Part shown: in pieces, positions 1,482 to 20,000 of the stretch | Position numbering within the stretch: position 1 is the stretch's first letter | Layout of the letters: the number at the start of each line of letters is the position of its first letter | Assembly (NCBI GenBank): GCA_010093605.1 | Contig: MU004199.1 | Span: 1,428,613 to 1,448,612, forward strand | Source of the DNA: Lophium mytilinum | Taxonomy: Eukaryota | Direction of reading: 5' to 3' | Length of the DNA stretch: 20,000 nt | The notes under the pieces: model-generated | The model's database searches: none | What the model saw: the letters and a program-made list of their open reading frames with translations, nothing else | Told to the model about the DNA's origin: nothing | Translations under genes and position numbers: made by a program

Positions 1482-2009
1482 CTAGCTCATACTTTTCTTC
1501 AACCCCTCCAGCCGTTCCAGTACGTCCTCAACCCGCCACACCAGCACCGCCAACTGCGCACCCACCTCCACTCTTCCCATCCTCTCAAACTCCATCTTCT
1601 TCATCCTCACTCTTTCTAGCTCACGCGTAGGGACCGGGCCAAGCTTCTTGGTAAGATATTCCATGATCCGAGCGCCGGAAGTGGACGTGGAAGTGGTCCG
1701 AAGAGCTTCGATCTTGGCAAGGGCAAACTCCCAGTCGGAAATAGTAGTGGTGAGATTGGAGATACCCACGAGGCGGTCGATGTAGGTGTCTGGATCTGTG
1801 GGGTGGGTAGTGTTGCGGGAGAGGTGAGCTTGGGCACGGTTCTTTATTGACTTATTTGCGGCGGTGATGGTGTAATAGTTTGTAGACTTGTTTTCGTGCG
1901 ATTGCGCAAGGGAGAGCTGTTGAGGTTGAAGTTGAGATGGAGAAGTTGCATCCGCCTTTGGGTTTGACCATGTCGGCCAGAATACAGCGACGGGATAGAG
2001 AGATGGCAT
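1482..2009 (-). CDS. Hypothetical protein (~175 aa), possibly truncated by a premature TAG
   Basis: Longest ORF in this interval (first ATG at 2009, MPSLYPVAVFWPTW...ELERVRMKKMEFERMGRVEVGAQLAVLVWRVEDVLERLEGLKKSMS*), with a helical-looking C-terminal half. No family recognised. Confidence 0.4.
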   Translation of the reverse strand: MPSLYPVAVFWPTWSNPKADATSPSQLQPQQLSLAQSHENKSTNYYTITAANKSIKNRAQAHLSRNTTHPTDPDTYIDRLVGISNLTTTISDWEFALAKIEALRTTSTSTSGARIMEYLTKKLGPVPTRELERVRMKKMEFERMGRVEVGAQLAVLVWRVEDVLERLEGLKKSMS

Positions 2010-3605
2010 TTTGGGTGGCGTCCGGTTCAATTGCCTTTATGTGGTGATGGTCCGATGGTAGCAGTACTAGTGGAGGTGAGAGAGTGGGAGGTGGGGGCGT
2101 CCGCTGGAGAGTTGTATGAAGCGTCGTAATAAGGTGAATCTGGCACGTGTTTGAGGTCATATGGTCTAATGATGGCGTAATCTTGTGAGAGGTACCATGC
2201 TGGTCTTCGAATGCAGAGCCGCCATTATTGTAGTTTATGAGTCGTTACCTGTTGGTTCTTGTGATTTTCGTAGTTCATGGCTCAGAAGTCGTGGAATGAA
2301 AGCTGAAAGTGATGTAATTGGACCAGCGCTCGAGATGTTGCATCCGACTCAAGACTAGTCAAAATTTTACGTACAGTATTCACTTAGTTCTAATTTCGTC
2401 TCTTTCGCAAGGCACCTACTGCTGAGGCTTAGGTTAGGACCTTTCGTCTATAGGCACTACGGCGAGGGCTTCGGCTTTCTCTTTGCGGCGTTTCATGAGC
2501 CAAGGGTCCATTTTATTTGACATGTGAACGATGATAGCCATCTTTTGTTCTGCCACAAATCTACTATGTGTGTCCTCCTCGACCATCTTGCCAAGCTACG
2601 GCTAGTAGTCTCTGCCATCCGGAGGTGGAGTGACTTCTGGTCTCTACCTCAGACAAATTGAGGTACAAGACGAGCCAATCGAGATTGTTGAGCGAAATTT
2701 TAGTATGATGCGCCCTGATCTGTCTCATTCGGTGTATGATCCTCTTCAGATAGGACTCAGATCTAAAACTGTGCTCTCCAGTCGTACCAAGATAAGCTCG
2801 CAGCTCGGGGATCAAAGTATCTGCTAAGGAAGAGAGATCGAGAGGCTCGTCTACGTTGGTCTTGATCGTGATTTGCGGGTAGATCCAATGGGGTGAAAAG
2901 TGATACTGGTGAATTTATGGTACTTTGACTGCTAGAGTGGCTTGCTTCGACACGCTGCAAGCAGCTTAAACGGCCCACAAGCGCATGGGTTTGAAGGGTT
3001 TTTTTGACATCTCGTTTGATGGGAGATTCGCAAATAACGGCGCGACTATTTTTCTTTCGATAGAGATGCGGGAGACCGTAAAGTTCTTCTTACCGGAATG
3101 ACCAGCTACGTTAGTGAAGGAATCGATCCCAAAGAAAGCGCCAGGCAAACGTCACAGATACCATCATTCGGCAACACAGGTTGAGTATCGGGAAAAGGAA
3201 AGTATACTATCAGATAATGTGTATCTGACCCAGGCTTGACCGTCGCTAACAAAAGCCACGACTTCTGAGGTTCTGGTCGGAGGGCGGTAGAAGGCTGCAG
3301 GTGGGCTGATGCAGAGGTCTTCATCCAATTATCTCTCCAAACTACAGGCAAGCTTTAAGATTGGACAGAGATGGTGGTCAGGTTTTAAAGATGGGACTGT
3401 TGATGGCGGGGATGTATGAGGTGTCGTCTCGGGCAGATCTGGGGTGTGCCTGGATAAGATGACGCTATCGCCGGCTACCTATCACCAAGCCAACTCAACC
3501 CCAAGCTTCACCTGCAGCTCCACCCACCACGACAGCTCCATCCATCACCCCAACTATACAACCCATTCTCACTCCTCTCGTATCCTTCCTTAAGCTTCCT
3601 ACACG

Positions 3606-4816
3606 ATGAAGTCTCCTTTGATCCTATCGCTATATGCTACAGCAATCACAACCGCTCTTGCTGCGCCACGAATAGAACAAGCAGTGCTTCAACAGCCAGA
3701 GCAAGAGCAGTTCCTCATCGAGCTAGCTCCAGGACAGAGACACTATGTTACTGAACATGAGAAATGGGAGCTTCGCAAGGTCAGCAGCGCAAAAACTGGA
3801 CAAGGCAGCTGGAAACTTTCACTGACACTCCGTAGCAAGGCATCAACTTCTTCGACATAACCGACAATGAAGACCTGGGCCTCATAAACCATAAGGTCGG
3901 CATCCAGGCCGTCACCTTTCCCTCCAAGACGTCGCACAACAAGACCATCGCGCCTATGCTCAAGAAGCTGGAAAAGAAGAACATGCGAAAGCACCTCGAG
4001 AAGTTCACATCATTCCACACTCGATACTTCAAGTCGGACTACGGGAAGCAGTCATCTGCGTGGCTACTGGGACAAGTCAACGATACTCTGTCAGAGGCGG
4101 GAGCGTTGGAGAAAGGAGCGTTCGTCAAGCCATTCGAGCATCCTTGGGGCCAGAGTAGCATCATTGCCACCATACCCGGCAAGAGTGACAAGACAGTTGT
4201 CATCGGCGCACATCAGGACAGCATCAACCTATGGCTGCCCGCTTTCCTGGCTGCCCCTGGCGCTGATGACGATGGTAGCGGAACGGTCACTATTCTGGAG
4301 GCTCTGCGTGTTCTGCTTACGTCGAAGGACATCATCGCGGGCAAGGGCGAGAACACGCTCGAGTTCCACTGGTACTCTGCTGAAGAAGGCGGTCTTCTGG
4401 GCTCGCAAGCGATATTCCAGTCATACGAGAAGGAAGGACGGAAGGTCAAAGCCATGCTCCAACAGGACATGACTGGCTACGTTCACAAGACGATCGAAGC
4501 AGGGGAGCCTGAAAGCGTCGGAGTCATCACAGATTTTGTGGATCCGGGTCTGACCGAGTTCATTAAGGAGGTCATCACCGACTACTGCGAGATCCCATAC
4601 ATCCTCACGAAGTGTGGATACGCTTGCTCCGACCACGCCAGCGCTTCCAAGGCCGGTTATCCGTCTGCCTTTGTCATCGAGAGCGACTTCAAGTATTCCG
4701 ATGACAAGATCCACACGACGGAGGACAAGATCGAGTACCTCAGCTTCGATCACATGCTGCAGCACGCCAGGCTGACGCTGGCTTTGGCGTACGAGTTGGT
4801 GTTTGCGAAGCTGTAG
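3606..4816 (+). CDS. LAP1: Secreted leucine aminopeptidase 1 (peptidase M28, Aeromonas-type); exons 3606-3779 and 3836-4816, ~384 aa
   Basis: Signal peptide [19 protein letters not shown]. Propeptide FLIELAPG...[20 protein letters not shown] is joined by a 56-nt intron (GTCAGC...CTGAC...TAG, 3780-3835). M28 zinc-site motifs: [48 protein letters not shown]. Confidence 0.95.
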
Positions 4817-5367
4817 ATATTGACAGGCAAGAGCATATATCAAAGACGCATAGCTTGGAACATGGTGGAGCGGGAGTCTTGGGGTATTCCTATCTTCGTA
4901 GTAAATGCAATACTATCTTCATTTTGATATTCTCACAGATCTTGCGTGACTGGAATCTAAGATGTTCGATGCAGCTGACGTTATACAAACTTGACGGGTC
5001 TGACACCGCAAGCAGTACGTGTTTCAGAGCTCAGAGAACAATACGAGCCCATTCATACCACGTTTGCAGCATGACAGTAACCTACGCGTACATGACTGTC
5101 CAGTGACAACAGATTGGTTCTCCACATGTCTCGCTTATGCACGGAATGACTCCATGACTTTGGTCCGGGCCGCCCTATCGCAGCTATCTGAGCCGCACCC
5201 CCGAACCTCCTCCGCCTCAGCTCTCCGTGCTCCTTCACTTCCGCATCTCTCGCCAGGGGCCTGCTATTGAAGGGCACTTCTTCATCTTCTTGCATTTGCA
5301 TTTGCTTTCTCTTCTCTATTCTGTCGTTCAACTTCATCTCCAGTTAGAAAGACCTACGTCATCCATC

Positions 5368-6499
5368 ATGGCGATCCATCCTACAGCTCCCGCGCCCCAG
5401 AGCCAGGCTCCAGCTGCAGCTGCAGCTCCCATCGACATTGAAGCCTGGACCGAGCAGGCGACGGCTGCGCTAAGCTCTGTCACCATCTCTGTGGCTCCCT
5501 CCGTTCCAAGCACGGGTGTCACTCTCCAGATCCCCCTGGATGACCACCCTGTATCCCGCGATGCTTCCGCTGCGCAAGCTGTTCGCGCTGGCTACGTCAA
5601 GCGGCGCGAGCCAATACGTCGGGATAGCATGAAAAGCCGCGAAGCGCTGCTGAAGGGCAAGGAGGGCAGCCGGCGGCGTCAGCGATGGGAGAATGGTGCG
5701 TATTAGTCTCGGTCTTGCCTGCGCATCAAAAGCGAGGCATTGCGGTCCTTCGAAGATCCATCATTGACGCGTTTAGATCGTCTCCTCTCCAACCCGCACG
5801 CGCAACCCCCTCAGCCGCATGACTGGGAGATCCGCCCCACGTACCCCGTCCGTAACGTTCCCTACTACCTCGCGCCACTCTGGGACACAACCTTCGCGGC
5901 CGCCTCCTCCACGCGCAAAGCTAAAGCTTCCGCTGCGAAGCAGACCCCAAAAGGCGCTGATAACGCGGGCAAAGTTCCCAAGGAGCTGCGCGAGAAGCTG
6001 AAGCGCGCGCGTGGCGCAAAGAGCTTGCTGGAGAACCTGGAGACCGAGGTTCGTCGGTTTGTCGCAGGGTGGGAAGATAGCGAGAAGATGCGTCTGGAGC
6101 GTGAGGCGGAGGAGGGGATTCCGCTCGAGCCGGACTCCGAAGACGAGGAGATCGTGTTCGTGGGCCGCAATGGGATGATGAATGACATGCGCAGCCCAAG
6201 GACTAGCGGGGAATTCGAACGGCGCGAAATGCTGCTGTTCGAAAGTCCTGCTGATGACCACGGGGCCAGCTTTGGGTGAGTTGTGTTCGGGGCGTAGATG
6301 ATGAGCTGTCGCTAATAAGAATAGACGCTTCCTCGTCCATCATATCGGCTCCTACTACGGCCTCCGCACCTGGTCTGTCACCACTGGCAATCCTGCTCGC
6401 CGCGAAGCATACATTGGCCTCAAAGACGCGAAGCTTAAATCTGGCCGGAAGCTCTTGACCCACTCTACCTTACCACGGCCATTGTACGGCCTGGTTTGA
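5368..6499 (+). CDS. R3H-associated N-terminal domain / R3H domain protein; exons 5368-5695, 5777-6275, 6325-6499
   Basis: Two introns (GTGCGT...TTGAC...TAG 5696-5776; GTGAGT...CTAAT...TAG 6276-6324) join RRDSMKSREALLKGKEGSRRRQRWEN-DRLLSNPHAQPP...DWEIRPTYP to the R3H-like C-terminus FG-RFLVHHIGSYYGLRTWSVTTGNPARREAYIG...LPRPLYGLV*. Confidence 0.88.
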
Positions 6500-7253
6500 G
6501 CACTTTCGGGCAGGAGTGCGATGCTGGAGCCCGTGTTATACTAAGCAACATTATAATCGAATTCTGTGAGTTCTGCGTTTGATGCCGCAGGCGGGGCGGT
6601 CTATGTTTCTTTCTCCTTCGAGCCGTGTCAATATACGCTTTTCAAACACTTTTGGCGGCATGAGAAATGCATCTGAGAGTCTGTTAGATGGCATAATTAG
6701 CAATACACAATAGCCATTATCCAAGATATTGACCGTGTAGTATATATATGCTTGTGCACGGGAAACTCCTCCGTTTGGCCTCTACTCTTGCTCGCTCGAT
6801 GGTATCAGTGTGGAGACTAACGCAGCCGACACATATTGAGTAAATTTGGAAGCAAACTAACTCCCACTGCATTGGTGAGGTTGTTTCAGCGTTTTCCGTA
6901 CATGGAAATGCTGTAGTGGGAGCTCTTGCACATAGAAGCTTTTTTGGTTCAATTCTGACACAGCAATACCCTAATCCCGTCTTCCTAATCCGGCCTCTCA
7001 GTTTCTCACGTGTATTCTGAAAGGCGTGTCGTTGTTCTGGATGTTGAGGCGGGTATAAGCGGTTTAGCGGGGGATTGAAAAAGAACGTCAATAGAAATCA
7101 TCTCGCGTCACCACCACTTTTCCTTTCTTTCACGCCACCACGACTCTCCCGTCCCACACCAAGTCATTGCTCCCAGATCCCATACACCTCGAAAATCTCA
7201 ATTCAAACGCCAGACCCTCTCAAAAGCAATCCTCACTACTCAACCCCGCATCC

Positions 7254-8910
7254 ATGGCCTCCAAAACCCGCCCCGCCATCCCACCCGTCGTAATGGACAC
7301 AATCACGCAGAACATCGGCAACACGCCCCTCGTCCGCCTGAACAAAATTCCCCAATCTCTCGGCATCCCCTGCACCGTCTATGCCAAGCTCGAAATGTTC
7401 AACGCTGGCGGCAGCGTGAAAGACCGCATCGCCTTGCGCATGATCGAGGAAGCCGAGAAGAGCGGGCGCATAAAACCGGGCGATACCCTCATCGAGCCCA
7501 CGTCTGGCAACACCGGCATCGGGCTCGCGCTCGTGGCGGCTGTGAAGGGATATAAGACGATTATTACGCTGCCGGAGAAGATGAGCCCAGAGAAAGTGGC
7601 GGTGCTGAGGGCGTTGGGAGCCGAAATTATCAGGACACCGACGCAGGCCGCGTGGGATAGTCCCGAGAGCCATATTGGGGTTGCGAGGCGATTAGAGAAG
7701 GAGATTCCGAATGCGCATATTTTGGATCAGTACGCCAACCCTGACAACCCGCTCGCGCATGAGTATGGCACTGCGGAGGAGATTTGGATGCAGACCGAGG
7801 GGAAGATTACGGTGTTGGTGGCAGGTGCTGGGACTGGCGGAACGATTACCGGAATATCAAAAGGGTTGAGGAAGCATAAGAAGGATGTCAAGATCGTCGC
7901 GGCAGATCCGTTTGGGAGTGTGCTGGCGGTCCCCGAAGCGTTGAATCAGGAGCATGCGAACGAGGGGTATAAGGTTGAGGGGATAGGGTATGATTTCATT
8001 CCAGATGTGCTGGATCGGGAGGCGGTGGATGTGTGGTACAAGACAGACGATCGGGCGGCGTTTGGGTATGCGAGGAGGCTAATTGCGGAGGAGGGGATTT
8101 TGTGTGGTGGAAGCAGTGGAAGTGCAATGGATGCTATGGTGAAGGCTGTGAAAGACCTCAAATTGGGAGCGGATGATGTTGTCGTCGTCGTGCTGCCAGA
8201 TAGCATACGGAGTTATCTCAGCAAGGTATGTTTCTCTCTCCGCTCAATTCATCGCTCCAAAATCCCCCCAGATGTACTTGTTGATCGATGATGCTGATTT
8301 TCCACAGTTCGTTGACGACGACTGGCTCGCTGCAAATGACCTCCTCCCTCCTTCGCCCCCGATCACTCCAGCAACTCTCTCTCGCCGCGCATCCACTTCC
8401 AAGAAGGACGACCCTTTTCAGGGCGCAACTATCGCATCCCTCCGCCTCAAGCCCGTCACTACCATCTCCGCCGCCTCTCCCTGCGCTGATGCCATCGAAA
8501 CAATGCGCGAGAAAGGCTTCGACCAGCTCCCTGTCTCCTCCGCAGCCGGCTCGCGCCTCGTGGGTCTTGTCACCCTTGGCAATCTCCTCTCCTACATCAG
8601 CTCCGGTCGCGCAGGCCCCAATAGCCCGGTCAAAGATGTGATGTTCGATTTCAGCAAACTAAGCGAGGTCGTGACTGACGTGCGGGACCTGCATATCAGT
8701 GACGACAAGGAGGAGAAAGACGGGAAGAAGCCCCGGGAATTCCTGGAAATCACGCGAGATACTCCGTTGAGCGCGCTTAGTCGGTTTTTCGAGTGGAATT
8801 CGGCGGCCGTGGTGACGGAGAAGGGAGAAAGTGGTATGAAGGCTGTTGCAGTGGTGACGAAGGTCGATTTGCTTGGGTGGCTGGTCAAGCACCGGAAGGA
8901 GGCGGCATAG
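7254..8910 (+). CDS. CYS4: Cystathionine beta-synthase (fungal type, no N-terminal heme domain); exons 7254-8225 and 8308-8910, ~524 aa
   Basis: [13 protein letters not shown]-lysine motif [28 protein letters not shown] phosphate loop, [12 protein letters not shown]. An intron (GTATGT...CTGAT...CAG, 8226-8307) joins SYLSK-FVDDDWL. C-terminal CBS (Bateman) pair: [11 protein letters not shown]...[10 protein letters not shown] and [10 protein letters not shown]. Confidence 0.96.
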
Positions 8911-9373
8911 ATGAGTAAGTTGGTAGTATGCCGGATACTGTCTTATTCAACATGACATTATCAGGAGTCATTTCAATCGACGAGAGCGCGGGATGTAGAA
9001 CGAAACGAGGGTTCCGGAAAGCATTGCAAAGGCGTTTTGGAGGTGCATGTGGTAAGCTGGGGTTCTTCCACGACGGGGCGATCAGGTAGGGTAGCAGAAA
9101 TGAAGCTATTCTTATATCGAATACGCAAAGACTTCATCTCACAATTCTAACACATACTTCTATTTCGGCAAACGGGGTTGTACTCGCTTTCACTTCTTCT
9201 TTCTCCTATTTTCAAAATCATCAATGAACATGAACAGTCACTGAATATATACCTTTTCTCCCGTTTTCGTTGCAACCTATCCTCAATCCGATTTGGACGC
9301 AGCTTCTTATTTTCTCCCTATCACCCTGGTTTAGTCATACTTCTCATCTTCGCTAGAACTCCTACGTTCACGT

Positions 9374-10225
9374 TCAGGCCAGCTCTCCGCCATCAATTGA
9401 GTAAGCCACCCCAGTAATGAACCGACTTTCGTCCCCCAGCAGAAACGCGGCCAGACTCGCAACTTCCTCCGCTTTCCCTATCCTCTTCAGTGGGTTCGAT
9501 GGTATGTAGTCCGGGTATATCTCCATCGTCAGATCAGCCATTGGCGTTTGGACCATCGCCCTAACACACTGTTAGCTCTCGCACCACTCAACGAGACTCC
9601 AATTCGAGCATCAAAACGATTGGTAAGGTGACACATACGGACAAAAACAATTAACCCTCACCCCCCTCCCCGCAACTGTCGGATCCTTGGCTGCGCTCTT
9701 CGTCAACCCTACAACCCCATGCTTACTCGCGGTGTACGCCGCGCCCCCAGCCGCCCCGTGCAAGCCTGCGATACTCGACGCATTTACTATGCTCCCGCCG
9801 TCCCTTATTACCTTGAGCTGCTCCCGCATGCAGTACATCACTCCTGTCAGATTCACCGCGAGCAGGAAATCCCACTCTTCATCATCTACGTCCGTGATCG
9901 CTGTGAAGCCCCCAGCGCGTGTCTTGTTCAGCACGCCCGCGATGTTTGCTGCGCCGTCCAGAGGGCCCAGCTTCTCAACGGTCCCAGAAATCCAGGCGCG
10001 TACTGAGGCAGCGGAACGCACGTCCACCGCTGTGATGCTCAGCCGTACTGTTGGGGCGGCCGCCCGGATGGATGATGAAGCTTCGGCTAGCGCGGCAGAG
10101 TTGATGTCTGCGAGAGAGAGAGTGGCGCCGCGGACGGCGAGGTAGGTTGCAAGCGAGAGGCCGATACCTGAGGCGGCGCCGGTGATCGCGATAATTTTGC
10201 CAGCGAAGGGGTGCGGAGAGGCCAT
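9374..10225 (-). CDS. Classical short-chain dehydrogenase/reductase (probably NAD(H)-preferring); exons 10225-9639 and 9560-9374, ~257 aa; alternative start at 10267
   Basis: TGAASGIG Rossmann motif, acidic residue in LADIN, NIAG, NASS, catalytic YTASK. An intron (GTATGT...GCTAAC...TAG, 9638-9561) joins RVNCFCP-AMVQTPM...PLKRIGKAEEVA...FITGVAYSIDGG. Confidence 0.93.
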
Positions 10226-11356
10226 AGTGCGGGGAATCTGGGGTATGGGGTAAGGGAAGGGTGGCATTCTTTATGGTTGGCGAAAAGTTGCGGAATCTGG
10301 GGATGTCCGGAATCGGAATTCGACAAGGTGTGTGGTAGGATTCCGGGTTCTGCTTTCTTATTGGTACGTTGGGTTGGAGGTAAGGGGACGAAAGTCGGCG
10401 GGCGAGACTGATACTGAGACATGGAGGGAGAGAGAACGGATTCTCGCGTACTTGGAGCTGCGATGTGAGAGGTCTGTTTCGGGTACGAGTCTTCAGAACT
10501 TCGTTTTGTTCTGATTCAAGGCGTAAGAGGAGCCTTCCCATTATTGTAATCTCCTTGATCTTGTTCTCACTCCTCCTGTCATACGAAACCAGCTGTGGAA
10601 GTCGTGTAATGAAAGATCCCGACCACTACGCCTACCCGGACTTACTGCTGCTCGTTGGCTAAAGTTAAGGATGCCGATTTTAACGAGGGTGGATCCACGA
10701 CTGGTCGATGCTGGATGTTCCCAGAGTCATCACCATTTTCTCACTGGGCCACCGAACCAACGGCAGACTACTCGGCTGGTATAGAACGTACGCCTAGGCG
10801 AGAGGGATATCCGCTCCGGCCGGGCTCTAGCAAACGCGTGGTTGGCGGCCAGGGAAGAGCTTTTCGACGCTACGGAGGCCGATGGTAAGTCTGAAGCTTA
10901 ACCATCGCTCCTCATACAAAGATCGACCACTTCTCCAGGGTGCTGAGAGGAGCAATCCGCTTAAACTTCTCTTCTGGGACTTATCTACATCTAATTTCAC
11001 TTACTCTATTCCGATATGTACTTTGGGGTTAGGGTTGGACGTTTCATATTTGATGATCGTTAGTCTATTCAACATCGTTCCTCCTACTGTAAAGCCTGCA
11101 ACACCGCTAGAGCCCGAGTTGTATCTTCTCCTCGCGCGCAAAGCACCAGAACTTGTAGCAAGCAATCTTTTATTGTCTTCCCTGATCCATGTCTTTGAGC
11201 GTCCGAGGACTGTAATAGTCTGCAGATATACAAGCACTAATGAGTCCGTATCCTTCGTCAAATCATTTGGCTACCAGCCTCTCTTCAGTAATTCCATGCC
11301 CTTCCGCTAATGATAGTTCCGCTGCTCTAATCATCTTTCTTAACCTTCTAATCCAT

Positions 11357-11527
11357 CTAGTGCTTCCATGCCGCGCTGCCCCAGTAGACTGCAGTAGAGA
11401 CTGCCCACACCGTCCCCAAGACAATCGGAAGACCGAAGCTAGCTATTGCCGCACTCTGAAAGATGGCGAAGAGAGAGCCCGCAACCACGTTCCCGATGCC
11501 GGCCTGGATGCCAACGGCAACACTTCC
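11357..11527 (-). pseudogene. Exon of an ISG12/IFI6-IFI27-like (interferon-induced 6-16 family-like) small membrane protein, probably inactivated by RIP
   Basis: Minus frame, not in the ORF track: GSVAVGIQAGIGNVVAGSLFAIFQSAAIASFGLPIVLGTVWAVSTAVYWGSAAWKH*MD*KVKKDD*. It is preceded by a TTGAC branch site and TAG acceptor (11529-11527). GSxAxxIQxGIGNVxAGSLFAxxQSA is the ISG12-like motif. Three in-frame TAGs follow. No upstream exon identified. Confidence 0.6.
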
Positions 11528-12754
11528 TATCTTTCCTCGTCAAGCCCACCATCTCATCCATGGCCTCAGGGCTGACGCTCTCCTTCGGCATTCGTGCCTG
11601 CCAACCTCGGACCCCGTCGCTCGCCGGCAAAGGCCAGCGAACGAAAGACCGTCAGATGGCCTTATCAGAGAGGTATGATCGTTGGTCTGCATACCACAAT
11701 GGATAGCTAATGCGGCGTGTCAGTTCAGGTATCTTCGTTCTAAGCCGTCGTGAATGTCGGTTAGGCTTCGGGAGATTTGACGGGATAACGGTACTTATTG
11801 GATCGCTTCAGCACGTAGTACTGGGCACATCAACTCCTAAGTCACAGGAGCATCAGCAGCGTTCAAAAGGAAATACGCATCACGAGGAACGGCGCTTTCC
11901 CATGTATGTGATCCGGGTATTTCGAGTATGCGTGGTGTCGGAGGTGCCGGAGAGAGTATCACGATCGGGCGTGTTTGCGAGTGGGTGGAGTAGAGGGCCC
12001 GTGAGCCGCAAGAGTAGTAGAGTGTGGATATAATCGCTTTCCTCTTCTTTCCGTGCCTAGAAATCAATATAGAAGTCTAGCCGACGTCGTGCGCCGGTTT
12101 GCGCTGCCGGAGACTTCGCTAGGCGACGTAGATAACGGCGGGTACGAGTACGCCATACGGAGACCTTGCTAGGTCCCGTGGCGTAGGCGACTAAGGGCCA
12201 GTTCGGTTGCGTCCTACGGTAGAGTATCTCGGTGAGTATATTACTTAATAATCCACCTACGCTGCCTTTCTACGCCCTATTCGGAACTATAGGTATATTT
12301 TAAAGCGTAGCTTCTAAAATATAGTTATTACTAGCCCGTATATTAGCCTACCTCTACCTATAAGCTAAAATATTATATTTCTTATTTAAAATTAGCTTCT
12401 ATAGTAGATTTTACTATATACTACTATTAAAATATAATTAATCTAGGCCTCTTTTCTAGCTATAAATCTAGTACGTGCCTAGAAGTTATATACTTACTAG
12501 AAATATTATTATTCTACTACTAGTATACTTTTAGATAGAATTATAAGTAGCTTTATACTTTAGCTTCTTATAGTATATTTTATAATATAATTCTACTTTT
12601 TATTCTATATATTTCTATATCTTACTATCTATAATACTATATACTATTTAAATATATAACTTTTTTTTCTATAGCTTTAATTACTTATTATAAAGTTATA
12701 CTAGACTATACTACTAGTAGCCTTAATACTATTACTTTAGTAGTATAGCTTTTT

Positions 12755-13065
12755 AGCTTAGTTATATAGCCTATAGATACTAATTTCTTTAAGATTTTAC
12801 TACTAGTCTATAGACTACTTAGTTAAAATAGTCTATAGACTACTTAGTTAATATAGTCTATAGACTACTTAGTTAATAAGTTTATAGGCTACTTATTAAT
12901 TAGCCTATAAATTAGCCTAGTTAAAATACCTAGTTTATAGCCTATAGATTAGCTTAGTCTATAGCCTATAGATTAGCTTAGTTAATTTACTTAGTATATA
13001 GCCTATAGATCTACTTAGTTATATATTTATAGGTATATTTAAATAGATCTATAAATTTACTTAGA
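12755..13065. repeat. Tandem/clustered repeat: three near-perfect 25-bp units (12804-12878) plus degenerate copies
   Basis: TAGTCTATAGACTACTTAGTTAA at 12804, 12829 and 12854, followed by variants such as TAGCCTATAGATTAGCTTAGT. Confidence 0.85.
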
Positions 13066-13423
13066 ATTACTAATAATAAGTAGCTACTTAAATTCTAGCT
13101 TTAAATAGTCTTACTATAAGCTATTATATACTTACTATATAAATACTTCTTTCTTTATATTATATAAATTTAATAGGCTATATAGACTTTTCTATATTAA
13201 TTACTATATACTAATTTAACTTAAAATCTAGAACTAGCTACTTTTACTTTCTTTTTCTTTTTTACTTTCTTATTTACCTTCTACTTATAATTTCTTTTAT
13301 AAAGCTATAAAAAATCTACTTCTATACTATTCTATATAGCTATTAATTACTAGTATAATCTATAGGTTAATAATTTCTCTATTATTTTATATAATATATA
13401 GATTATATATTATAGCTACTACT

Positions 13424-14156
13424 TATTATAAACTATCTATTTACCTAAAGATTATACTAAGAAACTTTAGAAGAAGAGTTTAGATAGTTAGATTTCTACT
13501 TACCTACTAGTTAACTATATTATAGGCTAATATATAATATAAAGTTTAAGTATAAATAGGTAGAATATTAAAAGAGAGGTGGCTTTAATAGTATTAGAAG
13601 TATATAAAAATAGTTAAGATACTTAAGTTATAATTAATTACTATTAAGTTCTATATGCTAGATATAAATATAAAAGTTAAGTATAAAAAATAAAAGATAA
13701 TAGAGAATTCTCTAGACTCTTATAGTTATTTAACCTTTATATAATTTAGTTCTACTTTCTCTATTCTCTCTAATCTCTATTCTTAATATAAGATTACTAA
13801 GATTATAGAAATTACTCTCTACTCTTTTTAATTTTACTCTTAGTATTTATACTAAGTAAGATCTAGAAGATTAGTTATATAACCTTATATTCTATAACTA
13901 CTACCTTTTCTAGTTATCTTTTTACTATTTTCTAAATACCTTTCTATATATAGATATAGCTAGAACTATATCTATTATACTATACTAGATCTTTTTAGAT
14001 TCTAGTATCTCTATTCTAGAACTATACTTATTCTAGAATATTTATTCTAGAATAGCCTATATTCTAGCATACTATTAGTTCTAGAATATTTATTTTAAAG
14101 TTATTCTACTTCTAGAATATCTATTCTAGAATAGCTTATATTCTAGGTTTATAATA
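13424..14156 (-). repeat. Putative 3' LTR of the chromovirus; right boundary well supported, left boundary tentative
   Basis: Starts immediately after the PPT as TATTATAAAC (RIPped TG... start) at 14156. It contains many TTCTAGAA(TA) subrepeats (~13960-14146) and a TATATAAAGG box (13742-13733). A 10-bp inverted match to the start (TATTATAAAC, plus strand) lies at 13424-13433. No second LTR in the window to confirm. Confidence 0.55.
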
Positions 14157-14168
14157 CTTACTCCCCCT
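14157..14168 (-). other. Polypurine tract of the LTR element
   Basis: Minus strand AGGGGGAGTAAG directly abuts the LTR start, downstream of pol. Confidence 0.75.
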
Positions 14169-14276
14169 ATAAGGCTTTTAGCCTAAAAGTTAATCTATAC
14201 TATTTTAGTTTTATATAAGGCTAGAAATACCCCTATACTCTTAAGATAGTATTCTCTACTCTTTCTTCTTCTTACT

Positions 14277-14858
14277 ATATCTAAGGTTAAAACCTTAACT
14301 ATCTATTATAAATATCTAGCCTTTAAGATTTATAATTATAATTATAATATACTAAACCTCTATAGAAACTATTAGTGCTTCTATTAGCGCTATCTAGTAG
14401 ATACTATATCTAGTTAGTACTCTAAGTATCTTAATTATAATCTAAAGTTCTATAATCTAGTAGTAACTAAGAAATACTAGACTTAAGTTAAGAAAGTAGA
14501 GGCTAAGCTCTAGACTTAGCTATTTACTATAGAGGCGGCTATACTTACTTATAAAGAGGTAGAGTAAGTAATACTTATATATAAAATTTATATTTAAAAG
14601 TAATTCTAGCTTCTTAAGTATTACTATAAGAAGATATTTAAGTAGAAGCTTACTTCTATTAAAAAGTTAGAGAATTTAGAAAAGGTAGAAAAGTTAGCTA
14701 CTATCTAATTCTCTAGATAGCTATTACCTAGGTTCTTTAATCTACTAGTAAATATTAATTAGGCTACTCTAGAGTCTCCCTCTATCTAGAATCTAGCGCT
14801 GCTAGATTTCTTTAGTAAAACTAGTTTACTAATTATTAGTAGTTTCTTAGGTTCTTAA
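14277..14858 (+). pseudogene. RIPped antisense accessory ORF of the retrotransposon (~193 codons): Zn2Cys6-like cluster, coiled coil, Ser/Pro/acidic tail
   Basis: In one plus frame, TAT/TAC codons (=TGT/TGC after RIP) at 14361, 14370, 14391, 14418, 14427 and 14451 give C-x2-C-x6-C-x8-C-x2-C-x7-C. The frame starts at ATA (=ATG) 14277 and ends at GGT TCT TAA 14858. Confidence 0.75.
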
Positions 14859-14964
14859 TAGGTTTCTAAGTATTTTAGTCTATTTTCTATTCTTTCTACT
14901 TAACTAAGTACTTCTACTAATTATTAATCTTCTATAGTTCTAAGATTTCTTTAATCTTATATTT
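14803..14964 (-). other. Chromodomain at the integrase C-terminus
   Basis: KYKIKEILEL*KINN**KYLVK*KE*KID*NT*KPIKNLRNY de-RIPs to EYEIEEIL...EYLVKWKGW...NTWEPIENL.NC, the canonical chromodomain pattern. Confidence 0.9.
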
Positions 14965-17914
14965 ATTCTCCTTTTTAAGTTATATAGCAGTTTAGAGTTT
15001 AGTATTTACTAGTACTAGTTTAAGTAGTAATATATAGAATACTAGGTAGATTTTTATATTTTTTAGTAGTTTTAGTTTATAGTTTATAGAACTAATAACT
15101 TTATTAACTTTAAATAGTTCTATTTAAATATAATTAAGTTTTTTACTAGGTCTTCTAGTTTTAAGGTTTTTTTAGTATAGGTAGACCTTATTTCCCTTCT
15201 TAAAAGTTAGTTTATTTAACTACTTCTTATCTATATATATCTAAGTTATCTTATTTCTAGCTTAAATACTTTAGTTAAGGTATATATATAAGTTTCTTAG
15301 TAATACTACTATTTCTATAACTATTTATATATTTATTATATCTTCTCTAGCCTTTTAATATATCTTTAGCTTATAGCTATAGTTTATATAGAATAGAAAC
15401 TTACTAGTTATAGCTAATTTAGCGCTATTATAGGTAAACTATACTATAGAAAGTAGTTCTATCTAGTTATTCTACTAATAGTTAATATAGTTTTATAGAT
15501 ACTATTTAAAAGTCTAGTTTATTTATTCTATCTATTTATCTATTTATAGGTAGAAACTTATTAAGAGCTTATAGTTTACCTCTAACCTTACTATAAGGGT
15601 CTTCTAGAAGTATAAAATAAAGAGTTTATCTCTATTAGTAATAAATTCCTTAAATAGCTAGTAGCTACTTAGTAGAATTTATAGTACTATATAAGCTAGC
15701 TTAGCTATACTATATATCTCTTATACTAGTATAAAGTATAAAAATTTAGTAAGTTAATTAATAAGTACTAAGATTAAGTTATAGCTTATATTAGTCTCTA
15801 GTTTTACTAATAGAGGTAACTTTATAATAAAGTCTATTATTACTAAATTCTATAGTTATTTAGAAACTCTTAGATTCTAAAGTAATCTATAGAGTATATA
15901 TTTTACTATTCTATTTTTTCTATAGTCTTTATAGTTCTTAATTACTTCTTTTACTATTATTCTTATCTAGGGAAACTAGTAGTTTCTTAAAAGTCTCTTT
16001 AGGGTTTTTTCTTATTCTTAGTATTTATATATTAGCGCGCTATAGTATTTCTTAGTAAGTTTCTTATAGTATACTTCTAGTACCTATAATATTCTCTTTA
16101 TTAGGTATATCTAGTTACTATCTTTATCTAAGATTATAGAAGTATTATATTAGAAGGCTTCTATATATCTATCTTCTTTCTAGAATTTATCTATCTAAGT
16201 ATTACTTATCTTAAGTATTACTACTAGTTTTAGATTATTATATTATAAGGTACTATCTATAGCTCTTATAAGTACTATATTATATACTAGTTTAGTATAA
16301 GGTATATAGTCTAATTAGCGGCTAAGCGCATTTATAGCTCTATTCTCTAATTCTTTCTAGTAATAGATTTTAAAGTTAAATAAGGCTAGTATCTCTATTT
16401 ATCTTACTTATTATCTACTTTAACTACTTTATAGTAGTAAAAACTATAAGGTTCTTATAGTTAAAGTAGACTATTATCTAGTATTTTAGTTCTTTAAGGT
16501 AGAATCTCTATTACTTAAATACTACTATAATTACTATTAACTTCTTATTATAGATATTATAGTTAAGTTCTTCTAAAGTAAGTTTTCTTAAATAGAATAC
16601 TACTAGTTAGTGTTTTCTATCTAGGTACTTTTAACTTAAGTAGGCGCCTATAGTATAGTTTAAGGCGTTTACCTTAACTATTATTTCTAGTTCTAGGTTA
16701 AATATTATTAGAATTAGAGTAGTAGTAAACTTCTTCTTAAGTTTATTAAATATAGTCTATATTTCTACCGTCTATTAAAATTCTTTATCTTTCTTAGTTA
16801 TCTCTATAAGGGGTGCGGTAGTTTTTAAATATTCTTAAATAAACTTTCTATAGAAGTTTATAAAACTAAGAAATAACTATATATTCTTTATATTTTATAA
16901 TATTAGCTATTCTAAGACTACTATAGTCTTTTTAGAGTTTATCTTAATTCTATTATAGAAGATAATAAAGCTAAGAAAGTCTATTATTATAATATAAAAC
17001 TTACTTTTATCTAGGTATACTAGAAGTCTAAATTCTTATAGCTTTATAAGTACTTTTTATATATATTTCTTATATTCTTTTAAGGTTCTATTAGTATATA
17101 CTAATATATTATCTAGATATATAGTTATAAATATATTAAGGTATTATTATAGCGCGTAGTAAATAAGCGCTTAAAGTATTACTAGAGCATTAGTTAAGCT
17201 AAAAAGTATTACTCTATACTTATAGAGTCTAAACCTTATTCTAAAGGCTATTTTTTATTCTTTACTAGGTATTATTCTAATATAGTAATATTCCTCTTAA
17301 ATATTAAGCTTAGTAAACTACTTAGCTTCTTATAAGTAGTCTTATAACTTCTAAATAAATAGTAATAGGTAGTAATTCTTAATTATTATATTATTTAGTC
17401 TTTAATAGTCTATATATAGTTATATTTTTCTATTCTTCTTAGATATAAAGAGAATTAGTAAGGCTATTAGGCTTTTACTTTTCTTAATATAGCTCTTAGC
17501 TAGGTTTATCTTAATATATTCTTATAGCGCCTTATACTAATTTTAAGATAATAAATAGATAGGTTCTAGAGTTAGCTTTACCTCTTTTTTAAGTAGTATT
17601 ATATAGTTCTATAGTTAGTTTTAAGGTAGCGTGTTCTTAATATTCTTTTTAAAAAGTTTCTTAAACTCTAAGTAGTTCTTTTATAGTATTTCTATAACTA
17701 CTTCTTTAATAGTAGCTATTTATTATAGCTAGATAATTTCTATATCTACTAGTTATTTATTATAGATTCTCTTAATCTTATATAGAGAGATTTATTCTAT
17801 AAAAAGTTCTTTCTTCTAGTTTTCTAGTTATTACTAAACTAATTATCTAATTCTAGCTACCCGGGCTGCTAGTCTTATTTCTCTCTTTTTCTAGTTAATT
17901 ACTAGATTATTTTA

Positions 17915-18693
17915 GGCTATAAGTATTTCTACACCCTTCTATTATATATTAATACCCCCTAATATTAGTAGATATATACCCTTCTTCTATTTAATCTTTT
18001 AATTAGTTTAGAGGGCTTAAATTACTACTATTTTATTATATATTCTTACTATTTCTAGTAGTCTATTAAGGCTATAGATAAGGCTATATATATAATCTAT
18101 ATATAAGACTATATATAAGGCTATATATAAGACTATATATAAGGCTATATATAAGGCTATATATAAAGCTATATATAAAACTATAGTTATAGTAAGGCTA
18201 TATAGTATACCTATTTTACTATATATACTTTCTATTTTCTATAGTATATATAGACTATTATATTACTATTTATATACCTATATACCTATAAGTATACTAA
18301 AATAGTTAAATTCTTACCTTATTATAGCCTCTCTATATTAAATCTAGCCCCCCTTATATTACTACTATACTCTACTAGCTATTCTTCTTATATAATACTA
18401 TTTAATATTAGAGCTCCTTATAAGAAAGCCGCGCTAGTACTATCTAAGGCTAAGAAGTAGGCTAAGACTAAGGCTAAGGCTTAGAATAGGTGCTTTTAAG
18501 TTACTATACTACCTTTTATAGTACTACTACTATTCTATAATACTTTTCTTTAAGCTAGATAGCTAGCTACTAGAGCTTTAAATAAAAGTCTAAGCTATTC
18601 TAGCTAATTAAAAGATTAGATAATAGGGATATATATCTACTAAAGTTAGAGGGTATTATTATATAATAGAAGGGTATAGAAATACTTATACCC
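17915..18693. mobile_element. Non-autonomous DNA transposon (779 bp) with ~100-bp imperfect TIRs and 8(-9)-bp TSD, Mutator- or Merlin-like, nested in the retrotransposon protease
   Basis: Left end GGCTATAAGTATTTCTACACCCTTCTATT... versus reverse complement of right end GGGTATAAGTATTTCTATACCCTTCTATT...: 58/64 identical, similarity continuing to ~18020/~18590. TTATTTTA(G) is duplicated at 17907 and 18694. Removal restores the protease frame. Confidence 0.92.
18067..18186 (+). repeat. 12-bp minisatellite (TAAGGCTATATA)n, about 10 copies, inside the TIR element
   Basis: Directly visible: ...taagactatata taaggctatata taagactatata taaggctatata taaggctatata taaagctatata taaaactata... Confidence 0.9.
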
Positions 18694-19084
18694 TTATTTT
18701 AGTAGAGCTAATTTTAACCTAGAATTATATCTAGCTCTTTAATATCTATAATATTTATATATAGTATCTCTATATAGCTAGCTACTAATAATATTATAGA
18801 TTAGATTTTAAGATTAATTACTTCTTCTCTATACTTTAGTAGTTAGTTATCTACTAGTTATACTTTCTTAGGTTTCTATTTCTTTTAGTAAGAAAGGCCT
18901 TTATTCTCTATCTATTTTAGTAATATAAAGCTCTAGAATACTCTACTATCTATTAATACTTTCTCTTTAAGTTTCTTATTAATTTTAAAGTTAATATATA
19001 AGTATAACCGGGGCTATATACTATATATATTTCTTAGAAATATTTTTACTATATTTTCTAGTAATTTCTTAGTCTAGTAGCCTA

Positions 19085-19385
19085 CTAGTTTTTTAAATCT
19101 ATTAGAATTCTAGGCTATAGGTCTATACTATAAATATAGTATCTAGCACCCTTAAAGTATTCTACTAAGTATAAGAGTAGATAGTACTAGTTCTTAGTAT
19201 TCTATTCTATTACTCTCTTTTCTTTTTAGTAGTGCCTATATCTATTTTTATACTATATTTAATAGAGTACTTAGTATTTATTACTTCTATAGTTATTCTT
19301 ATTACTAGACTTCTTATCTATAGAGGCGTCTATTAGTTCTACTATAGTCTCTTCTATCTAGTTAAGCTAGTTTCTAGTACTAATA
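19085..19385 (-). pseudogene. gag: 3' end of gag, ending at an A-AAA-AAC-TAG slippery site
   Basis: One frame de-RIPs to an acidic stretch followed by an H..LHW..C...C.HH..EK Cys/His motif, then TTA AAA AAC TAG (heptamer 19094-19088). The -1 frame runs directly into the protease. Confidence 0.7.
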
Positions 19386-20000
19386 TATAAATTAATTAGA
19401 ACGCGGGCCTATTCTAATTATTTTATTAGTAGGCGCACTAGTATATAGAGCCTATATTCTAATTACTATCTTTATAGAATTAGAACGCGCATTTCTTAAT
19501 AGAAGAAATAGATATAAATAATACTAAAGGTATAATTTATACTAGCGTATTAAATATACTATCTATATATAAAAAGAATAATAGATAATAGTTATAATTA
19601 ATAAAATAAGATATTAGTAAAAAAATATTAATAGAGTTATATTACGCACGGAACTATTAGAGTTTTATACTACTAATAACTATAACTACTAGAGAGATAT
19701 GCGCGTATAAATAATAAGAAGATACTTTATATTTAGCGCATTTTATATTATTATAAAATAGTAGAGTATAAAGTAATTATATATAGACTAAAGCTACTAT
19801 TAAGTGCATTACTTAATAGAGTTAGTAGCCTAGATACCTTATATACGCATCTATTAGTCTATAGTGCACTAAAATATATAAATCTTAAAATCTAGTAGCC
19901 GCCTTTACTATTTATAAATATAATATCTATATAGATATAGAGTAGAATTATTATAGTTAATATATATATTAAGATAATTATATTATATATATATTTATAA
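19386..20000. repeat. Unclassified RIP-degenerated sequence that appears to truncate or interrupt gag
   Basis: The gag-like reading is lost above ~19390. The segment begins with repeated and inverted AATTAGAA/TTCTAATT motifs (19393-19490) and retains more CG/GC words. No protein motif recognised. Confidence 0.4.

Follow-up and report, generated by a model that had tools for sequence, protein, structure and literature searches.

A conserved antisense accessory gene with a Zn2Cys6-like cysteine pattern in one clade of ascomycete chromoviruses and its probable RIP-destroyed copy in Lophium mytilinum

Boty-like elements are fungal chromoviruses in which a third gene, brtn, lies antisense in the interval from pol to the 3' LTR, as set out in the parts of the literature concerned with it (PMC8365987, PMC7264820, PMC4227169, PMC5987419), and a gene in this place and orientation is thus already known among fungal chromoviruses. 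In plants, the aORF-3R genes of the Grande, RIRE2, Retand and PvRetro13 elements are likewise antisense and located between pol and the 3' LTR; the section of the survey that covers them considers that antisense aORFs in this position may matter for retrotransposition, with a function that is not known (PMC7264820). The locus described here lies in a window of 20,000 nucleotides of Lophium mytilinum DNA (the whole stretch that was analysed), in which positions 14277 to 14858 of the plus strand very probably (a probability of about 0.85) hold a copy, destroyed by RIP, of a conserved accessory gene of one ascomycete chromovirus clade. This gene, termed aORF below, has in common with brtn, as far as the published descriptions of the latter go, that a chromodomain-bearing Ty3/Gypsy element carries it antisense, in the interval from pol to the 3' LTR, and that its function is unknown. 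The likeness is one of position and orientation as given in those descriptions. Boty is hosted by Leotiomycetes, whereas the named members of the aORF family come from Dothideomycetes only, and the name BRTN does not occur among the 120 family clusters listed of at least 218. With the plant aORF-3R genes the family shares position, orientation, conservation within families and an unknown function; these are genes of plant elements likened by their description, and the section of the survey devoted to them makes no mention of a zinc-cluster domain (PMC7264820). As in the aORF-3R class, the relic in the window occupies the interval that separates pol from the 3' LTR and is read in the direction opposite to gag-pol, and its family is conserved as a protein among copies (dN/dS 0.074-0.21, at least 218 clusters).

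The element carrying the relic is a Ty3/Gypsy chromovirus on the minus strand, recognised in a RIP-mutated block at 12300..20000 from GC content, RIP indices and pol relics, and it extends past the end of the window. GC is 0.20-0.25 in the block compared with 0.48-0.60 upstream. At 12301-20000 the TA/AT index is 1.73 and the (CA+TG)/(AC+GT) index 0.04, against 0.68 and 1.23 at 1-12000, and comparison of the window with other copies (sequencing run X1) gives 60 T>C, 45 A>G, 25 C>T and 11 G>A differences and 12 transversions. The block therefore bears all three marks of a RIP relic, namely high TA/AT, low (CA+TG)/(AC+GT) and C:G to T:A differences between copies. No 5' LTR was seen in the window and no long direct repeats in 12000-20000. 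The minus frames contain relics of the RT active site (YLDN, formerly YxDD, at 17108..17119), of integrase and of a C-terminal chromodomain at the end of pol (14806..14976, minus strand; placed with the help of an alignment with proteins P0003-P0009), which identify the element as a chromovirus. For protein searches the frames of the window were translated with stops read through as X, of which there are 50 in the part of pol that spans integrase, an SH3-like domain and the chromodomain (P0002; 14785..16323, minus strand). Relatives of P0002 were found with E-values down to 4e-59 and carry PF17921, PF00665, PF24626 and PF00385; searched directly against Pfam, P0002 matched SH3_Tf2-1 only, at 27.5 bits and under the cut-off of 30.

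In pol sense, a polypurine tract, TAGGGGGAGTAAG, stands directly before the 3' LTR (14157..14169, minus strand) and was located by eye against the junctions of polypurine tract and TGTT in three related loci, L003, L006 and L008. A purine run at 14253-14275 had also been taken for the tract and was dropped for 14157-14169 after comparison with the relative loci. The inner part of the 3' LTR occupies 13995..14156 (minus strand), with 14156 as its first base in pol sense, and opens with TATTAT, formerly TGTTAY. Contigs of other copies break at 14154-14156, leaving loose ends there, and summed contig depth is greater over 13900-14228 than over 14229-14800. Short tandem repeats fill the stretch 13995-14146, a 14-nt unit being present in about nine copies and a 79-80-nt unit in two, and an inner LTR end with short tandem repeats is seen in L003, L005, L006, L008 and L015 as well as in the window. 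From the junction of tract and TGTT to the ATG of the antisense gene there are 94-106 nt in L003, L006 and L008; in the window the start relic is 120 nt from the LTR edge, which agrees with the distance of about 120 bp proposed in the preliminary description.

The aORF relic (14277..14858, plus strand) runs antisense to pol from ATA, formerly ATG, at 14277-14279 to a TAA at 14856-14858, and its last 17 or so codons overlap the chromodomain relic. The frame comprises 193 codons with 16 in-frame stops (11 TAG, 5 TAA and no TGA). Because the ATG is now ATA, 16 stops interrupt the frame and all six cysteines are lost, the window copy cannot be functional. Six TAT or TAC codons at 14361, 14370, 14391, 14418, 14427 and 14451 form the zinc-cluster relic (14361..14453, plus strand) and place tyrosines at Y29-x2-Y32-x6-Y39-x8-Y48-x2-Y51-x7-Y59, which is the C-x2-C-x6-C-x8-C-x2-C-x7-C spacing that had first drawn attention to this frame. 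A TGC survives at 14376, inside the first loop. The pattern is the sole match in the six frames of the RIP block, in every one of which tyrosine makes up 9-13% of residues. In 500 dinucleotide shuffles of the block, matches average 0.5 and at least one occurs in 39.8%; within the 711-nt spacer between pol and the LTR alone, the pattern arises in 0.8% of 3000 shuffles. The stop density of the frame (16 per 193 codons) is also unremarkable, at the 10.8th percentile of all frames and windows of the block. Taken alone, the tyrosine pattern is no better than chance, and it acquires significance only through the un-mutated relatives.

These relatives were reached by way of pol. The un-mutated integrase-chromodomain relatives of P0002 were aligned and led to the retrieval of 80 metagenome chromovirus loci, nine of which are matched by the family HMM. 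All nine matches are antisense to pol and adjoin or overlap the end of the chromodomain, and each of the nine un-RIPped loci contains an intact antisense ORF of 165-207 aa. The gene ends within the final codons of the chromodomain and begins some 100-120 nt from the polypurine tract and 3' LTR. The relatives have the spacing C-x2-C-x6-C-x8/9-C-x2-C-x6-C, and the strict pattern C..C.{6}C.{5,12}C..C.{6,8}C is present in eight of the nine loci. In a quick IQ-TREE tree of the integrase-chromodomain region the nine loci and the window fall into one clade of 14 rows with an SH-aLRT of 100, in which the window groups with L001 and L002 (96). The gene is absent from the other 66 loci. One locus inside the clade, L004, also lacks aORF, although 738 nt follow its pol. 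Antisense ORFs cluster close to the chromodomain end in other clades too, and these look like by-products of homologous DNA.

The window copy was tied to this family by a RIP-aware alignment of codons to profile, which covers codons 2-89 (14280-14543) with a score of 36.2 bits. None of the five remaining frames of 12301-20000 exceeds 14.8 bits, a reversed profile reaches 13.2, and 1000 codon shuffles have a mean of 12.2, a standard deviation of 1.8 and a maximum of 21.4. In this alignment Y29, Y32, Y39, Y48, Y51 and Y59 sit on the six invariant cysteine columns, where the relatives carry real cysteines, and the tyrosines are probably former cysteines. The TAG of codon 68 (14478..14480, plus strand) sits on the column of the invariant tryptophan (TGG) that follows the cluster, W75 of alignment A4. 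The codon-phase relation between aORF and pol, worked out by hand from the coordinates, is the same in the window as in L001 and L002; the last cysteine loop has seven residues in the window compared with six in all members that show the pattern. The residue-by-residue reconstruction offered in the preliminary description fared unevenly. Its CLVDTTSGRC corresponds to CFVDTATGRC of L001, and arginine in place of Tyr102 is what a less mutated copy encodes (CGC), but other guesses depart from that copy, which reads AAG (Lys) at K103 and CTC (Leu) at F110. Among the 40 variant places listed, of 162 between the window and other copies, none is at the middle base of the six tyrosine codons.

Ordinary searches returned a blank for the window frame. 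It matched no Pfam family, a word-indexed search gave 51 candidates of which none reached E<=10, phmmer over 1.84 billion representatives gave nothing at E<=1e-3, and tblastn found no match in the 80 loci. Standard hmmsearch of the family profiles against the six frames of the window found nothing at the aORF site, the best E-values elsewhere being 0.87 and 6, and RIP-tolerant pairwise DNA alignments to five locus ORFs were not significant (z -0.3 to 1.9). The alignment with L001 did land on the right region. The link between window and family consequently rests on the purpose-made scoring together with position, phase and pol phylogeny.

The aORF family numbers at least 218 protein clusters at E<=1e-3, a lower bound since scoring covered the top 8000 word-sharing candidates. 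Among the 120 clusters listed of these, 102 have the strict cysteine pattern and none has a precomputed Pfam family; the named members are called either 'hypothetical protein' or 'Zn(2)-C6 fungal-type domain-containing protein' (UniRef) and belong to Dothideomycetes only. A look-up in the ESM Atlas returned only Ascomycota clusters without names. The six cysteines are invariant in seven of seven locus ORFs and in all 89 aligned members, and one tryptophan is also invariant in the 89. In the aORF frame the pairs among L006, L007 and L008 give dN/dS values of 0.074, 0.097 and 0.11 (dS 0.44-1.1) and the pair L001/L002 gives 0.21, the aORF frame having the lowest dN/dS of the six frames in every pair. 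These values from un-RIPped copies, which lie between 0.07 and 0.21, indicate strong purifying selection on the protein frame. The accessory gene has a fixed position and strand, is conserved, evolves under purifying selection and is restricted to one pol clade.

The protein encoded by intact relatives is 165-220 aa long and consists, in order, of a basic N-terminal helix, a six-cysteine cluster with Zn2Cys6 spacing, the invariant tryptophan, a helix of about 60 residues, homodimeric in the model, and a disordered tail that contains a conserved aromatic motif. The compact layout outlined in the preliminary description is recognisable here, down to the long helix, the aromatic and acidic tail and an end in '...GSS'. 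The AF2 model has a mean pLDDT of 78, with values above 90 in the cluster and helix blocks. Thirteen of the 14 Foldseek matches in the PDB at E<=10 are Zn2Cys6 DNA-binding domains (Leu3, Gal4, Put3, Pho7, Ppr1, Hap1), the best having an E of 1.1, and VIA-align gives weak matches to Ppr1 (Z 3.0, rmsd 3.3 Å, 58 aligned) and Pho7 (Z 2.2, rmsd 2.3 Å, 36 aligned). The fold model bears only a weak resemblance to Gal4-type domains. The intact relatives conform to the Zn(II)2Cys6 spacing CX2CX6CX5-12CX2CX6-8C, but the gathering score of 21 for the Pfam family Zn_clus (PF00172) is not reached, the best of eight locus ORFs scoring 17.5 bits (E 0.0045) and five of the eight having no Zn_clus match at E<=1. 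Zn_clus is nonetheless the family most frequently matched, by 12 of 89 members at E<=0.01 with a best value of 1.7e-4. A PDB sequence search with the family profile found nothing significant, GAL4 standing at E 0.55.

The predicted homodimer has a score of 0.62, the best of three controls 0.00; the mark for a dimer is reached by 21 of 30 proteins solved as one-chain pairs and by none of 23 solved as single chains, and on eukaryotes by 17 of 29, but by only one of seven with no older solved relative. The dimer was predicted without an alignment, and its runs agree in at least 96% of contacts with a partner pLDDT of at least 87. The model supports dimer binding and does not show it. The helices are modelled as antiparallel, with contacts at i+j of about 184-192 (for example 78 with 106, 70 with 117 and 92 with 92), and the clusters would therefore be placed at opposite ends of a rod, unlike those in the parallel dimers of Gal4, Ppr1 and Put3.

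Gal4-type factors (Gal4, Ppr1, Put3, Leu3, Hap1, Pho7; PF00172) share with the aORF protein six cysteines in the arrangement CX2CX6CX8-12CX2CX6C followed by a dimerising helix, which in aORF is that of the model. The aORF protein differs from them in being tiny (165-220 aa), in lacking the fungal transcription factor middle homology region, in being encoded by a retrotransposon rather than at a host locus, and in having a first loop poor in basic residues, an antiparallel coiled coil in the model, weak fold scores and, in the ORFs tested, Pfam scores below the gathering threshold. The loop between the second and third cysteines of Gal4 carries lysines that contact DNA. This basic contact loop is not conserved in aORF, where the six-residue loop has a mean of 1.25 K+R in 110 members and the commonest residues along it are F/E, E/L, K/E, N/G, L/R and R/D. 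The 30 residues before the cluster have a positive net charge, with a mean of +2.7. Some of these features argue against DNA binding of the canonical Gal4 type, and because the fold likeness is weak, the dimer antiparallel and the basic contact loop not conserved, the function is one that we infer.

The mechanism favoured here, which is put forward tentatively and at somewhat less than even odds, is that an antisense transcript starting in or beside the 3' LTR would make the protein, that its product would be a putative zinc-binding, dimeric nuclear factor, and that this factor would regulate transcription of its own element by binding DNA, plausible sites being the short tandem repeats of the inner LTR end. 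The functional analogue proposed is HBZ of the vertebrate retrovirus HTLV-1, a bZIP factor whose antisense transcript comes from the 3' LTR. Both would be small factors with a basic region and a coiled coil encoded antisense at the 3' end of a retroelement; HBZ has a bZIP and not a zinc cluster, the two are without homology, and the likeness is a functional analogy. A fuller version, which is possible and rather more doubtful, would have the chromovirus clade acquire a host-type Zn2Cys6-like module, express it antisense at the 3' LTR and use it as an HBZ-like regulator that binds the tandem repeats of its own inner LTR, where the antiparallel dimer might connect a pair of sites or a pair of LTRs and set the balance between sense transcription, and with it transposition, and silence. 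The literature search found nothing that joins a zinc cluster or Zn2Cys6 domain with an antisense ORF of an LTR retrotransposon.

That the tyrosine spacing is an accident of tyrosine-rich, RIP-mutated DNA and no relic of a gene is hardly credible. Such an accident would fit the half match expected per RIP block and the ordinary stop density, but not a score of 36.2 bits where 1000 shuffles stop at 21.4, nor a site, strand and phase that recur in relatives of the same pol clade. Also very improbable is that a C-terminal extension of pol keeps the antisense frame open as a side effect, or that the antisense RNA is functional and the protein incidental. The pol frame does stay open for 467-809 nt across aORF in L001, L002 and L003, and the database proteins P0003-P0006 include this extension; in L005-L008, however, pol stops 44-89 nt into aORF. 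For L001/L002 the dN/dS is 1.67 in the phase of the pol extension (phase assigned by hand) against the 0.21 of the aORF frame, and the invariance of six cysteines and one tryptophan in 89 members speaks for the protein as well.

Where the gene is accepted as real, its product may still not bind DNA, and the cluster and antiparallel coiled coil could serve contacts with protein or RNA, for example in particle assembly, nuclear entry or the choice of integration site together with the chromodomain. This explanation, unlikely though far from negligible, draws on the unconserved DNA-contact loop, the antiparallel dimer model, Zn_clus matches that are below threshold only, and the suggestion, in the part of the survey dealing with them, that antisense aORFs may be important for retrotransposition (PMC7264820). 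The predominance of DNA-binding Zn2Cys6 domains among the fold matches and the positive charge ahead of the cluster are against it. An anti-silencing factor directed at host defence (RIP, quelling or heterochromatin) in place of an LTR regulator, the alternative named in the preliminary description, is improbable. The strong purifying selection means that the protein matters to the element. Against such a role, the window and other genome copies are heavily RIP-mutated with differences that are mostly T>C and A>G in the other copies, and the Pfam and PDB sequence searches found no similarity to known suppressors.

LTR retrotransposons are usually taken to encode gag and pol only. If the reading of aORF as a regulator of its own element is true, the element would come with a regulator of its own, encoded by a conserved third gene with a zinc cluster of the transcription factor type. 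In fungi with AT-rich, RIP-mutated isochores made of such elements, this would be relevant to the ways in which the elements evade or adjust silencing. The RIP-aware scoring of codons against a profile recovered a relic that every ordinary search had missed, and it may be applicable to other RIP-mutated regions. On the reading of aORF as a regulator, many small Dothideomycete proteins annotated as 'Zn(2)-C6' or 'hypothetical' would be retrotransposon genes and not host transcription factors, and since members of the family bear these names, counts of host Zn2Cys6 proteins in Dothideomycetes may include transposon genes.

The first 12000 bases of the window have a GC content of 0.48-0.60, which is ordinary fungal composition, and carry ordinary ORFs for a peptidase M28 (3956-4813), an R3H-associated domain protein (5227-6276), an enzyme with PALP and CBS domains (7167-8907) and a short-chain dehydrogenase (9614-10267); the PALP and CBS enzyme is cystathionine beta-synthase-like. 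From about 12300, some 300 nt past the last ordinary ORF, to the end of the window the GC content drops to 0.20-0.25 and a RIP block sets in, with a TA/AT ratio of 1.73 versus 0.68 in bases 1-12000 and a (CA+TG)/(AC+GT) ratio of 0.04 versus 1.23. The RIP-mutated DNA that separates the gene-rich part from the LTR contains two tandem copies of 61 nt with 79% identity (12892-13013); the stretch 12300-13990 may be further LTR or some other degraded repeat. The minus strand of the block harbours Ty3/Gypsy pol relics, comprising the RT motif relic YLDN (17108-17119), an integrase relic and a chromodomain relic (14806-14976). The integrase-chromodomain part of this pol, P0002, in which 50 stops are read as X, has un-mutated relatives down to an E value of 4e-59 that carry the integrase, SH3-like and chromodomain Pfam families.

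Opposite pol, the plus-strand frame from 14277 starts with ATA, ends with TAA at 14856 and contains 16 in-frame stops, 11 TAG and 5 TAA. Reading this frame confirmed the preliminary description's claim of Tyr codons at Zn2Cys6-type spacing: they lie at 14361, 14370, 14391, 14418, 14427 and 14451 (x2, x6, x8, x2, x7). Taken alone this pattern is within chance. Tyr makes up 9-13% in all six frames, 500 dinucleotide shuffles of the RIP block gave a mean of 0.5 pattern matches with at least one in 39.8%, and the stop density of the frame is only at the 10.8th percentile. Ordinary database searches with the frame (P0001) returned no match. Another copy, seen on one loose contig end, has CGC at codon 102 where the window has TAT; Tyr codons in the RIP block may therefore also derive from Arg, and thus the Tyr pattern alone is insufficient for the claim.

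Other copies were seen in two DNA sequencing runs, X1 and X2, of one sample that is possibly the window's own source, so that this evidence is not independent. In the two runs, 112 and 113 pieces of contigs aligned to the stretch at a likeness of 80%. The differences in X1 (T>C 60 and A>G 45 versus C>T 25, G>A 11 and 12 transversions) fit a window copy that belongs to the more heavily mutated ones. None of the 40 variant places listed, out of 162, coincides with the second codon position of any of the six Tyr codons. One contig in each run joins 14374 to 14751 and is another element copy without 376 nt of the antisense ORF (aORF).

Seven un-mutated integrase-chromodomain proteins were aligned and used to scan metagenome contigs, which yielded 597 pattern matches, 591 of them confirmed, and the best 80 of these 591 loci were taken. 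By tblastn L002, L003, L001, L004 and L015 are nearest to the window pol among them. Eight of the best 80 (L001, L002, L003, L005, L006, L007, L008 and the truncated L032) possess an antisense ORF that overlaps the chromodomain end and has six real cysteines spaced C-x2-C-x6-C-x8/9-C-x2-C-x6-C; its length is 166-207 aa in seven loci and 82 aa in L032. The L001 sequence CKRCEEKNFRCFVDTATGRCAGCIAVKAEC corresponds to YRNY*CFY*RYLVDTISS*YSKYLNYNLKFY in the window. These intact ORFs support the structural reading proposed earlier, namely a zinc cluster and coiled coil encoded antisense to pol. Sequence of 600 nt or more follows 64 chromodomain ends, spread over 61 of the best 80 loci. A family profile run over six frames of the 80 matched nine loci, all nine on the strand opposite pol and adjoining the chromodomain end. 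In a quick IQ-TREE phylogeny of the integrase-chromodomain these nine, the window and four other loci form one 14-row clade with support 100, where L001/L002 are sister to the window (support 96), itself on a long branch. Within the clade, the sequences of L010 and L075 end at pol with nothing downstream, L014, whose contig stops within the ORF, retains its coiled-coil and tail part, and no aORF was found in the 738 nt beyond pol in L004. The same profile found no such ORF in six frames of the other 66 loci outside the clade.

Because standard hmmsearch with the family profile did not detect the window copy and RIP-tolerant pairwise DNA alignment to the locus ORFs was not significant (z at most 1.9), RIP-aware codon-versus-profile scoring was used. 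The score is a likelihood ratio of each window codon against each profile column that sums over every ancestral codon from which C>T and G>A changes alone can produce the observed one, with the same mutation model in the null; the profile was that of the L001/L002-like subfamily (42 sequences). For the window aORF frame the score is 36.2 bits across codons 2-89 (14280-14543), compared with at most 14.8 bits for the other five frames of 12301-20000, a mean of 12.2 (sd 1.8, maximum 21.4) for 1000 codon shuffles, 13.2 for the reversed profile, at most 19.2 for 300 column-shuffled profiles and 15.3 for the alignment without the RIP model. The six Cys columns receive Y29, Y32, Y39, Y48, Y51 and Y59, with the last loop one residue longer, and TAG68 falls on a Trp column that is invariant in 89 aligned members. 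By eye, TAG162-A-T-L resembles the W-S-T-L of L006-L008 and the window end ...LGS* resembles ...GSS*, and a hand calculation from coordinates gives the window ORF the codon phase of L001/L002 relative to pol. With a probability of about 0.95 the window frame is a relic of the antisense zinc-cluster gene family. The gene is dead in this copy.

The dN/dS comparison (pairwise, NG86) that had been proposed for un-RIPped copies gave the aORF frame the lowest ratio of the six frames in every pair: 0.074, 0.097 and 0.11 among L006, L007 and L008 (dS 0.44-1.1), 0.21 for L001/L002 and 0.475 for the distant pair L003/L005. The sole other frame with low dN/dS is the antisense frame with shared wobble positions. 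The pol stop lies 44-89 nt into the aORF in L005-L008; in L001-L003 pol remains open past the chromodomain over 467-809 nt, spanning the aORF (L001:272-1080, L002:5240-6033, L003:2839-3305). With a dN/dS of 1.67 in its phase (L001/L002), this extension does not appear to be the selected reading. Open pol tails of the same kind are also contained in the database proteins P0003-P0006.

L003, L006 and L008 each show, 94-106 nt past the aORF ATG, a purine run and then TGTTAC. Matched to these junctions, the window PPT is at 14157-14169 (TAGGGGGAGTAAG followed by TATTAT), with 14156 as the LTR edge; the distance to the ATA at 14277 is 120 nt, in agreement with the earlier estimate of about 120 bp between the start and the 3' LTR. 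Breaks in the contigs of other copies fall at 14154-14156, consistent with solo LTRs or differing flanks. The contig ends of L001, L003 and L006 are identical or near-identical over 164, 157 and 127 nt (98-100% identity), so that these contigs are circular permutations of whole elements with one LTR, the ORF lying within the element. Either the assembly may have merged the two LTRs, or one-LTR circles may really exist. Short tandem repeats occupy the inner (U3) LTR end of the window element (13995-14146) and of L003, L005, L006, L008 and L015: about nine copies of a 14-nt unit TATTCTAGAATAAA (pol sense) in the window and 3.2 copies of CAACCACGCCG at L006:1963-1997 and L008:5253-5287. TGATCA-type motifs are, by eye, common to L003, L005, L006 and L008, and together with the repeats they are candidate binding sites. 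TATA-like strings occur in the spacer of about 100 nt between the PPT and the aORF start. In L006 (1843-1879) and the same region of L008, GCTTATAAC and the palindrome GCTTATAAGC lie 14-50 nt upstream of the ATG, and the window has TATATAA 59-65 nt upstream of the start (14212-14218), weak evidence in AT-rich RIP DNA. Judging from these sequences, the core promoter of the aORF may sit within the internal part of the element and not in its LTR.

Searching protein clusters with a profile built from seven locus ORFs gave at least 218 matching clusters at E≤1e-3 among 8000 scored candidates. The strict Cys pattern is present in 102 of the 120 matches listed; the others are short at the N terminus, contain longer loops or have acquired Cys-to-Tyr changes themselves. 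P0072, P0083 and P0104 have Tyr at one or two cluster Cys positions, which suggests that lightly RIP-mutated copies may be annotated as genes in databases. No member among the 120 listed has a precomputed Pfam family, and their names are 'hypothetical protein' or, in UniRef, 'Zn(2)-C6 fungal-type domain-containing protein'. The organisms named are Bipolaris maydis, Stemphylium lycopersici, Pyrenophora teres, Periconia macrospinosa, Sporormia fimetaria, Macroventuria anomochaeta, Boeremia exigua, Exserohilum turcicum and Elsinoe australis, two of them confirmed as Dothideomycetes by taxonomy; the remainder also belong to this class. The ESM Atlas holds Ascomycota clusters of 62-122 members.

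AlphaFold2 modelling of the L002 ORF with 89 members aligned (mean pLDDT 78) gave a helix (15-29), a compact cluster region (31-66), a long helix (72-131, with 10-residue blocks mostly above pLDDT 90) and a disordered tail. Foldseek against the PDB returned 14 weak matches at E≤10, 13 of which are Zn2Cys6 DNA-binding domains (Leu3, Gal4, Put3, Pho7, Ppr1, Hap1), the best E being only 1.1; VIA-align gave Z 3.0 for Ppr1 (3.3 Å over 58 residues) and 2.2 for Pho7 (2.3 Å over 36 residues). Pfam Zn_clus scores L002 below cut-off (17.5 versus 21 bits) and reaches E≤0.01 in 12 of 89 members, and a PDB sequence search with the family profile found nothing significant. Since these matches are weak or below cut-off, the cluster is called Zn2Cys6-like rather than a member of the Zn2Cys6 domain family.

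Homodimer prediction, modelled without alignment and with zinc included, scored 0.62 (best of three controls 0.00). Among proteins of solved structure, 21 of 30 pairs of one chain and 0 of 23 single chains reach the mark for a dimer; eukaryotic proteins do so in 17 of 29 cases, but in just 1 of the 7 cases that lack an older solved relative. Runs agreed in at least 96% of contacts with partner pLDDT of at least 87, and contacts of 78 with 106, 70 with 117 and 92 with 92 give an antiparallel arrangement. The model supports, but does not prove, pairing of the protein with itself. Gal4 has four basic residues between Cys2 and Cys3; the same loop has a mean of 1.25 in 110 members. This poverty in basic residues argues against canonical Gal4-type action, as would the predicted antiparallel homodimer. 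The main rival explanation, a cofactor role without DNA binding, is to be weighed against the fold matches to DNA-binding domains and is considered rather unlikely.

Plant elements, and Boty of Botrytis and Sclerotinia, are described as carrying extra antisense ORFs between pol and the 3' LTR, the Boty gene being termed brtn, and the function of these ORFs is given as not known (PMC7264820; PMC8365987; PMC4227169; PMC5987419). As far as those descriptions allow comparison, brtn shares with the window family its antisense orientation and its position between pol and the 3' LTR. A full-text literature search, with subscription journals mostly outside its coverage, found no paper tying a Zn2Cys6 or zinc-cluster domain to an antisense LTR-retrotransposon ORF. 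The antisense-gene class is already known, and the zinc-cluster and coiled-coil family with its breadth and selection appears to be undescribed so far. It is tentatively proposed, at somewhat under even odds, that the element would encode a zinc-cluster regulator that functions as a dimer and acts on the element's LTR.
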